This document shows positions 41,034 through 44,268 of a stretch of DNA of 54,250 bases, one piece after another. The translations under genes and the position numbers were made by a program. The stretch is from the sequence record OM141125.2, one strand, 5' to 3'. Below the pieces are notes generated by a model that saw nothing but the letters and a program-made list of their open reading frames with translations, was not told the DNA's origin and did no database searches. This DNA comes from Pseudomonas phage PP9W2. Within the stretch, counting starts at the first letter, position 1. The number at the start of each line of letters is the position of its first letter.

Positions 41034-41225
41034 TCATTCGCTTTCAACGTATGCGCCGAAGTCAATGTGATTACCGAGAAAGTCTTGAGCTAACTCTTCT
41101 AGATATTCATCTTTCCCTTCTTCTGAAAGAGAGTCCCAATACCCTTTGTCTATCTCGATAGAGTCTTCGTGTTTGCATCCAGCAAATCCGGTATCCACAT
41201 ACATTTTGATCTTGATAAGTTCCAT
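41034..41225 (-). CDS. small highly acidic protein (63 aa)
   Basis: 17 Asp/Glu against 5 Lys; about 42% GC island. Confidence 0.45.
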   Translation of the reverse strand: MELIKIKMYVDTGFAGCKHEDSIEIDKGYWDSLSEEGKDEYLEELAQDFLGNHIDFGAYVESE

Positions 41226-41677: not shown

Positions 41678-41812
41678 ATGGTCGAATCGCTGCCTACCGT
41701 TGCGCGGTAGGTCCGCTGGCTATGCATCGGCCAGCTCGGCGTCCATCTGGTTGTTAAAGAGCGGTCGGCTCGGTGGCCTCGCGCTGCGGTGTTCTGCGGC
41801 GTTGAGGTGAGT

Positions 41813-41852
41813 ATGAGATTGCTCATATTCATTGTCAATGAGTTTCCCCATA
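41813..41852 (-). promoter_or_regulatory. OL/PL: two operator sites plus TTGACA -35
   Basis: TATGAGattgCTCATA and AATGAGtttcCCCATA with centres 24 bp apart. TTGACA on the minus strand lies between them. Confidence 0.4.
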
Positions 41853-41867
41853 TTTTTTCTTGAGGCC

Positions 41868-41895
41868 ATGAAAAAGCCCGCGCTAGGCGGGCTTA
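41868..41895 (-). terminator. rho-independent terminator of cI operon
   Basis: On the minus strand: gccataagcccgcctagcgcgggcTTTTTCAT. Confidence 0.5.
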
Positions 41896-41913
41896 TGGCT
41901 CCTTTGGAAGGTT

Positions 41914-42183
41914 CTAGCTGCGGCGTCTTAGGGTGAATCCCCTAGCGGCCATGCCAAACAGGCAGAAAATGGCGCCTACCGCTGCTTTGGCCAGAAGGAT
42001 AGTAGTAGGGTGCTGCTCCCAGGCAGGGATACTGCCTGAAAAGGCAAGCGTGATAGCGACATATACACACGCAGAGATCAGTACCGAGATTCTGCTCTTG
42101 ATGAAGAACCCGATAGCCGCGCACAGGAAGAACACCAATGGGTCCAGAAGGGAAGCTGCTAGGCAAGCGACAAACACAACCAA
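41914..42183 (-). CDS. 3-TM membrane protein co-transcribed with cI (rexB-like position)
   Basis: TTG start with AGGAG RBS 10 nt after the cI stop; about 52% GC; followed by a terminator. Confidence 0.5.
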   Translation of the reverse strand: MVVFVACLAASLLDPLVFFLCAAIGFFIKSRISVLISACVYVAITLAFSGSIPAWEQHPTTILLAKAAVGAIFCLFGMAARGFTLRRRS

Positions 42184-42192
42184 AGCGATCTC

Positions 42193-42864
42193 CTATCCAA
42201 TGCCGCCACCGCGCCATATGACGCGACCTATGATTGGAAGCTCATGAACTGAGCTTTCACTAGCCATCTCATCCGGATAAGCGGACTTGTCTGGATTGTC
42301 GCTACGGATTAGCCACGCTCCTGTTAACTGCTGGTTAAGGCGCTTGATGCTAACGCCGCCATCCGGCCTCCGGATAACATAGACCTGCTTGTCCTGTGGG
42401 TCTGTCTTGGAGGTGTCGAAGAGGACCACATCTCCCTCGAATATGTAAGGCTCCATGCTGTCGCCATCAGCATAGATTACAAAGAGGTTCTCCGGCTTTG
42501 AGTTGACACGCTTCAGCCAGTCGCGCTTGAAGACAAGCCCTTCGGTGGTCTCAACGTGATCATTGAAATACCCATCGCCGCATTCGCCGCGAGCAGTGTA
42601 TTGAGGTATCAGGGCGTAGTCCTTTTCGCTTGGGGCTCCTGGTAAAGCCTCTTCATTGTTGTTCATGTTGCCACGCCCAGCGGCAAGCCATAACGCGCTT
42701 ACCCCGCAAGCAGCAGCTAGCTGAGCAATATACGCCGATCCCTGAGATTTTCCTTTCTCAAGGTTGGAAATAGATGTTTGGTCCAGGCCGACTCGCTGAG
42801 CCAGTTGAGCCTGAGTGAGATTGGCGTGCTTGCGCGCGGCCTTGATGCGGTCTTTGAGTTCCAT
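42193..42864 (-). CDS. cI: CI-like repressor (HTH_XRE plus S24 LexA-like peptidase)
   Basis: [24 protein letters not shown]; Ala-Gly cleavage site and Ser...Lys catalytic dyad (DGDSMEP...VSIKRL); leaderless start downstream of a GATAAT -10. Confidence 0.85.
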
Positions 42865-42875
42865 CCGAAAATTAT

Positions 42876-42939
42876 CATGGGCGTTCCCATGTCCTTGCAA
42901 ATGAGTATTCCCCTGCTGTACCGTATGAGTATTCCCATA
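42876..42939 (+). promoter_or_regulatory. OR: three operator sites at 24-bp spacing, PRM/PR
   Basis: CATGGGcgttCCCATG, AATGAGtattCCCCTG and TATGAGtattCCCATA; consensus ATGRG-N4-CYCAT. Confidence 0.5.
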
Positions 42940-42951
42940 AGGAGGGAAGCT

Positions 42952-43173
42952 ATGACCACCATCTACAAAGAGCTCGTCGCCTATTTTGGGACTCAAGACG
43001 AGACCGCCGCGAAGCTCGGCGTTGACCAAAGCACTGTGTCTGGATGGGTCCGGGGAAAGCACGGGATGTCTCCTATTGTTGCGAAGCGGGCTCAGGTTTT
43101 GACCGACGGGAAATTCAAGAAAGAGGACCTGTGTCCGGCTTTCCCGTGGGAAATGCTGTCGGCGGTTGCCTGA
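42952..43173 (+). CDS. cro: Cro-like HTH protein
   Basis: GGAGGGAAG RBS; [23 protein letters not shown]; divergent from cI. Confidence 0.65.
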
Positions 43174-43174
43174 C

Positions 43175-43483
43175 ATGACAGCCAGTCAATTAAACCCCGA
43201 GCAGGAAGCAAGGGCACGCAAGAACTACAGCCTCATCGTGCAGCGACTTGCATCGGTTGGAAATGCGCCGGTTGCGCATGCAGTCGGTTGCGATGAGTCG
43301 ACGATCAGCCGAATGAAGCCGGAGAAGTTCCTTGAGTTCGCCCGGATCTTGGCCGTGCTGGACCTGAAGGTCGTCGGCAACGAGATGAAGTGCTTCAACG
43401 AGAAGGAGATCGCCGCGATCTTGCACCTGGCGAAATCGAAGCTCTCTGAGGTCGAGAGCGTCGAGCAACTGGAGTGGGATTGA
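43175..43483 (+). CDS. cII: CII-like transcriptional activator
   Basis: [37 protein letters not shown] resembles the lambda CII core. Confidence 0.55.
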
Positions 43484-43677: not shown

Positions 43678-44268
43678 ATGAGTTACGGGTTTATCTACTG
43701 CCTGGGCAATCAGGCTATGCCGGGGATCTACAAGATCGGCATGACAGAACGGGCTCCGACTCAGCGCTGTATTGAGCTTTCAAATGCTACGGCGGCGCCT
43801 CTTCCTTTCGACCTTCTGTTTTACGGCGAGGTGGAAGACCCGCGTGAAGTGGAACGCAAGATCCACGAACAGTTCGATCTCGAACGGCTCTCCTGTGGTC
43901 GCGAATTCTTCCGCGGCCGCGCCCTGACCTACAAGCTGGCAATTGAAGAGTGGTGCAGCTCGATAGCTGTTACCAGCGACGGCGATTATTACCTGTCCGT
44001 AGAAGATTTGTTGGATCAGCTGGAGGCATGCGCGGATGACGAAGGGCGCGTCGAGGTCTTCATGCGCTACGCCTCCTTGGATGGAATTCGCATGTGGGCC
44101 GAGGGTGGAAACGTGCGATTCAGCGTGCCAAATCTCGACATGATCCCGCGCTGGATTCTGGCGGCATCGTCTATCTGCAAAGGAGTGCTTTTGCAGCATC
44201 TGCCGACTGAACACCCGATCAAGTCCAGCCGCGCTCTTTCCCTGATTGCCGCGGAGGATAGCTGGTGA
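43678..44268 (+). CDS. T5orf172 (GIY-YIG-like, MUG113) domain protein
   Basis: YGFIYCLGNQAMPGIYKIGMTERAPTQRCIEL. Confidence 0.55.
   Translation: MSYGFIYCLGNQAMPGIYKIGMTERAPTQRCIELSNATAAPLPFDLLFYGEVEDPREVERKIHEQFDLERLSCGREFFRGRALTYKLAIEEWCSSIAVTSDGDYYLSVEDLLDQLEACADDEGRVEVFMRYASLDGIRMWAEGGNVRFSVPNLDMIPRWILAASSICKGVLLQHLPTEHPIKSSRALSLIAAEDSW

Follow-up and report, generated by a model that had tools for sequence, protein, structure and literature searches.

The slot immediately behind the repressor gene cI is a classic home of exclusion genes that are expressed in lysogens, such as rexAB in lambda and nun in HK022. In the lambda annotation the elements are ordered cro / OR-PRM / cI / rexA / rexB / OL-PL / N, and rexAB lie on the cI strand between the cI stop codon and the terminator ahead of OL/PL. 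We know of no such exclusion gene that has been characterised in those temperate phages of P. aeruginosa that make up the D3/F10/JBD44 group. Exclusion is also carried out by small, partner-less inner-membrane proteins, of which T4 Imm, P22 SieA and HK97 gp15 are examples (PMC3594210). Where such small, partner-less membrane proteins are made by prophages, they are the classic blockers of DNA entry (PMC3594210; PMC11436027). A review from 2024 gives only O-antigen conversion (acetylation) for D3, and inner-membrane DNA-entry blockers appear in it, with no Pseudomonas example, only as something that Pseudomonas phages "might mimic" (PMC11436027).

The DNA analysed here, a stretch of 54,250 nt referred to as the window, appears from its sequence to derive from a D3-like phage or prophage. 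The region considered below is 93% identical at the DNA level to the immunity regions of D3, phi_D3 and PMG1 (P. aeruginosa temperate phages of the genus Detrevirus), and the right-hand 24 kb of the window is a mosaic of which the best phage records cover only 34-44%, at ~93% identity. The elements of the immunity region are arranged as cro / OR-PRM / cI / small ORF / terminator / OL-PL, with the small open reading frame (ORF) occupying the slot that rexAB hold in lambda; the positional analogy put forward by the first-pass annotation, which had assigned the ORF to the rexAB site, is exact from cro through to OL/PL. The cI gene (42193-42864, minus strand) encodes a 223-aa repressor with HTH_3 and Peptidase_S24 domains (Pfam) that belongs to phrog_4 and is 96% identical to the cI of PMG1. 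On the other side of cI from the small ORF lie cro (42952-43173) and cII (43166-43483), both on the plus strand. Between cII and the replication genes, the window encodes a 196-aa phrog_36333 protein (43678-44268, plus strand); the gene at this position in locus L005 has Pfam matches to T5orf172/MUG113, and D3 and PMG1 carry a different small gene there, orf72.

A PRM-like promoter (TTGCAA-18-GATAAT, 42871-42900, minus strand) is placed with the end of its -10 element 7 nt before the cI ATG, suggesting that the cI mRNA is leaderless or nearly so, a likeness to the message made from PRM in lambda. Three 14-bp OR operators (42877-42890, 42901-42914 and 42925-42938) match the operators annotated in D3. 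The pE (PRE-like) promoter of D3 is conserved together with its CII box, and mapping from the D3 annotation puts it at 43189-43221 on the minus strand, with the CII box TTGC-N6-TTGC at 43208-43221.

The small ORF (41914-42183, minus strand) encodes an 89-aa protein with three predicted transmembrane (TM) helices, a member of phrog_28098. According to the ORF list and the sequence it starts 9 nt past the cI stop codon, with TTG and not ATG, a start codon common to every D3-clade homologue; a GTG close to the TTG is not retained in D3-clade relatives. A Shine-Dalgarno sequence, AGGAG (42190-42194, minus strand), lies 6 nt 5' of the TTG (42183-42181) and overlaps the cI stop codon TAG (42193-42195), the coding-strand junction of the two genes reading GGA TAG GAG ATC GCT TTG GTT GTG, and it is kept as TAGGAG(A/G)TC in all D3-clade loci. 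No Shine-Dalgarno sequence is present ahead of cI (42862-42900, minus strand), whereas that of the small ORF is strong. The first-pass annotation had described an 89-aa, three-TM protein preceded by an AGGAG ribosome-binding site and encoded by the sole gene between the cI stop codon and a minus-strand terminator. The ORF list, hydropathy and AlphaFold bear this description out, and the interval from the cI stop codon to the terminator has room for no other ORF. Its further statement that the gene is low in GC holds against the window (54.4% versus 59.1%) and fails against cI (53.7%), so the small ORF is compositionally not distinct from its own operon.

No promoter-like site is found between cI and the small ORF in the window, and given the 9-nt gap the small ORF would hardly be transcribed except with cI, from PRM and pE. 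This architecture strongly implies expression in lysogens. A separate promoter for the small-ORF cassette was considered and rejected, as none is present in the window or in those loci where the gap is longer.

The operon ends, 19 nt past the small-ORF stop codon, at an intrinsic terminator (41871-41894, minus strand) with an 8-bp stem, a 5-nt loop and a U tract (U5), the hairpin being AAGCCCGC-CUAGC-GCGGGCUU followed by U's; over a 61-nt stretch the terminator folds at -22 kcal/mol (z = -2.6). A simple terminator scan did not list the hairpin at 41894-41871. It is kept in all relatives, including JBD44, F10 and VB_EV13, which lack the ORF, and in the PMG1 annotation a rho-independent terminator and a promoter occupy the corresponding places. 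Directly past the terminator, two OL operators (41838-41851 and 41813-41826) flank and overlap a PL-like promoter, TTGACA-17-CATACT (41810-41851, minus strand), with TTGACA at 41838-41833 and CATACT at 41815-41810. A 49-aa ORF with an ATG start (41720-41869, minus strand) directly follows the terminator and overlies OL and PL. With neither a family match nor a Shine-Dalgarno sequence, this ORF is unlikely to be a gene. Farther along the leftward early region, a 63-aa DUF7167/phrog_7018 gene (41034-41225, minus strand), with a GC content of only 40.6% against 59.1% for the window and with a terminator-like hairpin following it (41012-40996), is closer in look to a classical low-GC moron than the small ORF is.

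As a gene the small ORF is not new, having already been annotated as a hypothetical protein in PMG1 (PMG1_00069), phi_D3 and Lodos, whose versions are 84-87% identical to that of the window; the window allele is 97% identical to cluster P0001 and 86.5% identical to PMG1. The match to phrog_28098, a family of unassigned function, is full-length (E 1.4e-47, residues 1-89 on positions 1-89 of the 89 in the profile). Among eight alleles, pairwise dN/dS is 0.3-0.55 at dS 0.2-0.5, and the sole length change is an indel of one in-frame codon. Omega is 0.10 in TM2, 0.24 in TM1 and 0.28 in TM3, against ~1.2 for the periplasmic loop and 0.9 for the tail; variable columns number 12 of 16 in the loop and 26 of 73 elsewhere (Fisher p = 0.005), a test that is indicative only because the sequence pairs are not independent. 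The TM helices are strongly constrained, and the loop and tail relaxed or diversifying.

A short frame with a TTG start, unannotated in the original D3 record and faced by an antisense frame that likewise stays open (81-109 codons), might be read as having arisen by chance in the untranslated 3' region of the cI mRNA. Such an origin is hard to reconcile with the retention of the frame and of invariant motifs in homologues as distant as 30% identity, with a dN/dS far under 1 in the TM helices and with the conserved Shine-Dalgarno sequence. The gap in the D3 record (AF165214.2, locus L001) is due to a 1-nt deletion after codon 3, in the segment homologous to window positions 42170-42183, where D3 reads TTGGTTGTGT-CATC and PMG1 reads TTGGTTGTGTTCATC; because of it, no gene is annotated between cI and orf68. 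The deletion is missing in PMG1 and in the resequenced phi_D3 (PP944329), where the ORF is intact, and it is thus probably a sequencing error. A chance frame is effectively refuted by these comparative data and retains next to no credibility; the small ORF is a genuine gene under purifying selection. The alternative frame on the sense strand is broken in relatives, and the antisense frame, although fairly open, is otherwise unsupported as a gene. Fusion of cI to the TM protein by read-through of the cI stop codon was also considered, the cI TAG being in frame within the D3 clade, and is ruled out because the frame is broken at other loci, where the gap is 95 nt, 11 nt or -4 nt.

A word-indexed search for the family to which the protein belongs returned only seven 90%-identity clusters, all from P. 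aeruginosa, and an exhaustive HMMER profile search of 1.84 billion representatives added one distant member, P0008; searching with P0008 alone gave nothing further. In BFVD the one match to emerge from Foldseek was a viral protein of 90 aa, itself uncharacterised, and this match together with a weak tblastn match led to gp40 of the P. fluorescens phage UFJF_PfDIW6; the BFVD protein may be this UFJF_PfDIW6 homologue, with which its size and identity fit. A profile that included these distant members recovered eight more proteins of 90-93 aa, the named ones belonging to P. yamanorum and P. protegens. The ORF family is present at 15 loci in IMG/VR, and no match was confirmed among the GTDB species-representative genomes. 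At one IMG/VR prophage locus (L035, 3001-3300) the small ORF has lost its stop codon and runs on (…RRRRSNLSKGARSSGG), reflecting an assembly error or else a natural extension of the C-terminus.

Homologues at 30-40% identity in other Pseudomonas prophages share motifs with the protein of the window. Across 17 sequences M1, A6, A10, S11, L13, D14, G25, A38, L46, P53, G70, A71 and G77 are invariant, P15 is nearly so, and a Lys or an Arg occupies position 66 in each (K66 in the window, within TM3). TM1 contains the motif ASLLDP with its invariant membrane-embedded Asp, and G25, G70-A71 and G77 form conserved small-residue packing motifs. The periplasmic loop comprises only ~5 residues in most members of the family. 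Hydropathy windows above 1.6 delimit three TM segments in the small protein (residues ~2-28, ~32-52 and ~59-81), and AlphaFold models three helices (2-27, 32-49 and 59-88), giving a plain three-helix bundle both times and with modest confidence (pLDDT 59 in the first model and 71 with a deeper alignment). Basic residues are placed in loop 1 (K29 and R31) and in the tail (R81 and R86-88), which by the positive-inside rule suggests an N-out/C-in topology. The protein is predicted to reside in the inner membrane, almost wholly embedded in it, with a short basic cytoplasmic tail. A lipobox-like F-V-A-C7 raised the prospect of a lipoprotein, which was dismissed because C7 is replaced by Y or S in relatives.

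The combination of three TM segments, a predicted N-out/C-in orientation, a basic C-terminal tail and a length in the range of ~90-105 aa resembles that of class I holins such as lambda S105, and a pore-forming role is conceivable on this account. The product might be an abortive effector, an oligomeric channel of the holin or RexB kind that would depolarise or lyse the superinfected lysogen and so protect the population. The membrane-embedded Asp and the Lys/Arg conserved throughout the family, small residues at heptad spacing that are compatible with tight oligomeric packing, and the exact rexB position would all suit such a channel, and there is a weak, non-significant match to a PHROG holin (phrog_217, E 0.64). 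However, a channel expressed constitutively from the repressor operon would require a trigger, and none is evident; no sensor partner, whether RexA-like or otherwise conserved, accompanies the gene in any context, and the protein shows no similarity to RexB, to SieB or to any holin family, with no holin match in Pfam. Class I holins belong to a lysis cassette, next to an endolysin, whereas the small ORF lies in the immunity region within the repressor operon. We consider a pore effector unlikely.

Close relatives differ in whether they carry the gene. The cI of JBD44 is 100% identical to that of the carriers L005 and L006, yet JBD44 is without the ORF, its cI stop codon leading straight to the terminator; the ORF is also missing from F10, with a cI 97% identical at the protein level to that of the same carriers, and from VB_EV13, with a cI that matches that of the window at ~85% of nucleotides. 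In all three phages the DNA match to the window is continuous from cI to the terminator and PL, and the segment absent is exactly the ORF with its flanks, from cI stop codon to terminator. Carriers can differ as well: in L004 (5320-6267), and likewise in L034, cI is 100% identical to that of the window and the small ORF only 71% identical, indicating a recombination breakpoint at the cI stop codon. When the proteins of L004 and L034 are compared with that of the window, the periplasmic loop is the most divergent part. In Lodos, L017, L021 and L024 a block of homology takes in the last 14-40 nt of a D3-type cI and reaches as far as the terminator. A cassette of ~345-370 bp, made up of this cI remnant, the Shine-Dalgarno sequence, the ORF and the terminator, has therefore passed from one immunity region to another in P. 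aeruginosa. Presence or absence between close phages agrees with the definition of a moron by Hendrix; the other attributes in that definition are lacking, there being no promoter of its own, no deviant composition and no terminator of its own, since the terminator is found in the ORF-less phages too. The small ORF is thus an accessory gene of the repressor operon and not a classical autonomous moron.

In every locus examined the small gene lies 3' of an S24 repressor gene and on the same strand, and this applies to at least seven repressor types, which are mutually no more than 62% identical and mostly below 43%. The two genes are separated by 9-11 nt, or overlap by 4 nt, in most loci. Behind D3-type cI the gap is 9 nt, and behind cI genes 67-68% identical to that of D3 it is 9-11 nt; the small protein encoded there is only ~40% identical, indicating an old linkage in which the small gene is the faster-evolving of the two. 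A 238-aa repressor gene, found in P. yamanorum, P. protegens and related contigs, has a stop codon that overlaps the start of the small gene by 4 nt. Longer gaps follow a 222-aa repressor (95 nt) and a 273-aa repressor (186 nt), with no promoter-like site in either, and both of these loci continue with the same terminator and then a different PL-like promoter. The gap is 60 nt in phage UFJF_PfDIW6, and in a metagenomic phage the small gene is the last of six same-strand genes after the repressor. Behind a 283-aa repressor, a 216-aa gene stands between repressor and small gene. The product of this intervening gene, 216-217 aa in Lodos (L003, 1691-2344), L017 (4250-4900) and L036-L040, where it follows the 283-aa S24 repressor, is a member of phrog_3989 that is annotated as a BRCT-domain protein and weakly matches the defence candidate PDC-S48 in PADLOC (E 2e-6); in L021 the final ~35 nt of the gene persist as a remnant. 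The slot behind the repressor seems to collect accessory genes. No conserved partner gene stands beside the small gene in any locus examined, and no informative family match was obtained for the genes that adjoin the PfDIW6 homologue or the distant homologue of L012.

Tight and often translational coupling to this many repressor types suggests a tie to the lysogenic state, and the gene might accordingly have a role outside defence, either tuning repressor level or induction, or serving as a lysogenic-conversion trait that affects a host membrane function such as transport, envelope stress, or pilus or LPS assembly. Conserved TM helices combined with a relaxed loop and tail would fit a conserved host membrane target, and a precedent exists in D3 itself, which encodes the alpha-polymerase inhibitor Iap, a small hydrophobic protein that acts on a host membrane enzyme (PMC3594210). 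Against a role of this kind, the ORF is absent from JBD44, F10 and VB_EV13 although their cI is identical or almost identical, so that it is dispensable for repressor function; in addition, no host homologue of the small protein exists among the 1.84 billion representatives searched, and no similarity to transporter or regulator families was found in Pfam. A non-defence role is thus somewhat unlikely, although it has to be taken seriously. A far more speculative version, to which we attach very little probability, is that the family acts as a membrane-embedded partner of S24 repressors, which translational coupling would keep in fixed proportion to them and through which the state of the envelope or of membrane energetics would feed into repressor activity or prophage induction. 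If true, lambdoid prophages across Pseudomonas would have in common a RecA-independent input to their lysis-lysogeny switch.

The reading that we favour, by analogy and with some reserve, is that the protein, as a single component, excludes superinfecting phages by means of contacts within the inner membrane; it is a real possibility, if short of an even chance. In lysogens PRM, and during establishment the CII-dependent pE, would drive transcription of the small ORF together with cI, and the transcript would end at the conserved terminator just ahead of OL/PL. Low-level translation would start from the AGGAG/TTG of the small ORF itself, overlapping the cI stop codon, and would yield a three-helix inner-membrane protein acting alone at the cytoplasmic membrane. 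There, helix-helix contacts may block the entry of an incoming genome or disable a membrane component that the phage needs, which is the mode of action of T4 Imm, P22 SieA and HK97 gp15. Some considerations count against exclusion. D3 lysogens already exclude by O-antigen conversion (PMC11436027), so that an additional factor is unnecessary for the known phenotypes, and a periplasmic loop of ~5 residues would leave hardly any surface for contact with a phage that is entering. The small gene is unmentioned in the literature on D3, PMG1, Pseudomonas morons and exclusion that was covered, a body that leaves the original D3 papers outside, and this literature holds no expression or phenotype data for the gene or its homologues.

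What is added here is a Pseudomonas-wide small-protein family coupled to prophage repressors, and a predicted conserved intramembrane charged pair made up of the invariant Asp of TM1 and the Lys/Arg of TM3. The relatives described above also provide natural near-isogenic pairs in which the same cI occurs with the ORF present and with the ORF absent. If the gene does confer exclusion, it would add a new small-protein mechanism and would have a bearing on host-range prediction in phage therapy against P. aeruginosa lysogens. If it does not, its strict linkage to repressors still calls for explanation.

Set beside the known systems, the product of the small ORF resembles lambda RexB as a predicted polytopic inner-membrane protein that would be expressed in lysogens, and differs from it in size and topology, RexB having 144 aa and 4 TM segments against 89 aa and 3. 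Comparison of the family alignment with RexB by hhalign gave a probability of 1.7%. No RexA-like gene lies by the small ORF or is conserved in related loci, and lacking a RexA-like sensor the two-component Rex mechanism cannot apply, which makes an abortive system of the Rex type the less likely choice. Comparison with SieB of lambda and P22 gave a probability of 1.3%, with no Pfam SieB match, and SieB sits in the PL region, whereas the small ORF is on the cI side of the terminator and outside the PL operon. The description of the locus as rexB/sieB-like is therefore accurate as a statement of position and does not extend to any family relation (hhalign below 2% in both cases and no Pfam match).

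Among the wider resources, Pfam yielded nothing above threshold, its only hit being MerC (E 0.036; 15 bits, where the cut-off is 27.6), a sub-threshold hit that we regard as compositional; PADLOC and NCBIfam gave no match for the small protein, and the PDB, searched with HMMER and Foldseek, gave only noise in the form of TolQ and ATP-synthase c subunits, with E values above 2. Neither these searches in Pfam, PADLOC and NCBIfam nor those of PDB sequences and folds detected homology to Imm, SieA or gp15. The gene sites also differ, gp15 being encoded in the tail operon of HK97, SieA in the immI region of P22 and Imm among the early genes of T4, in contrast to the repressor operon here. The likeness to these three proteins is one of kind: the product of the small ORF is predicted to be small, partner-less and almost fully embedded in the membrane, and its gene, like theirs, is accessory, present or absent between close relatives, and presumably expressed from the prophage (PMC3594210).
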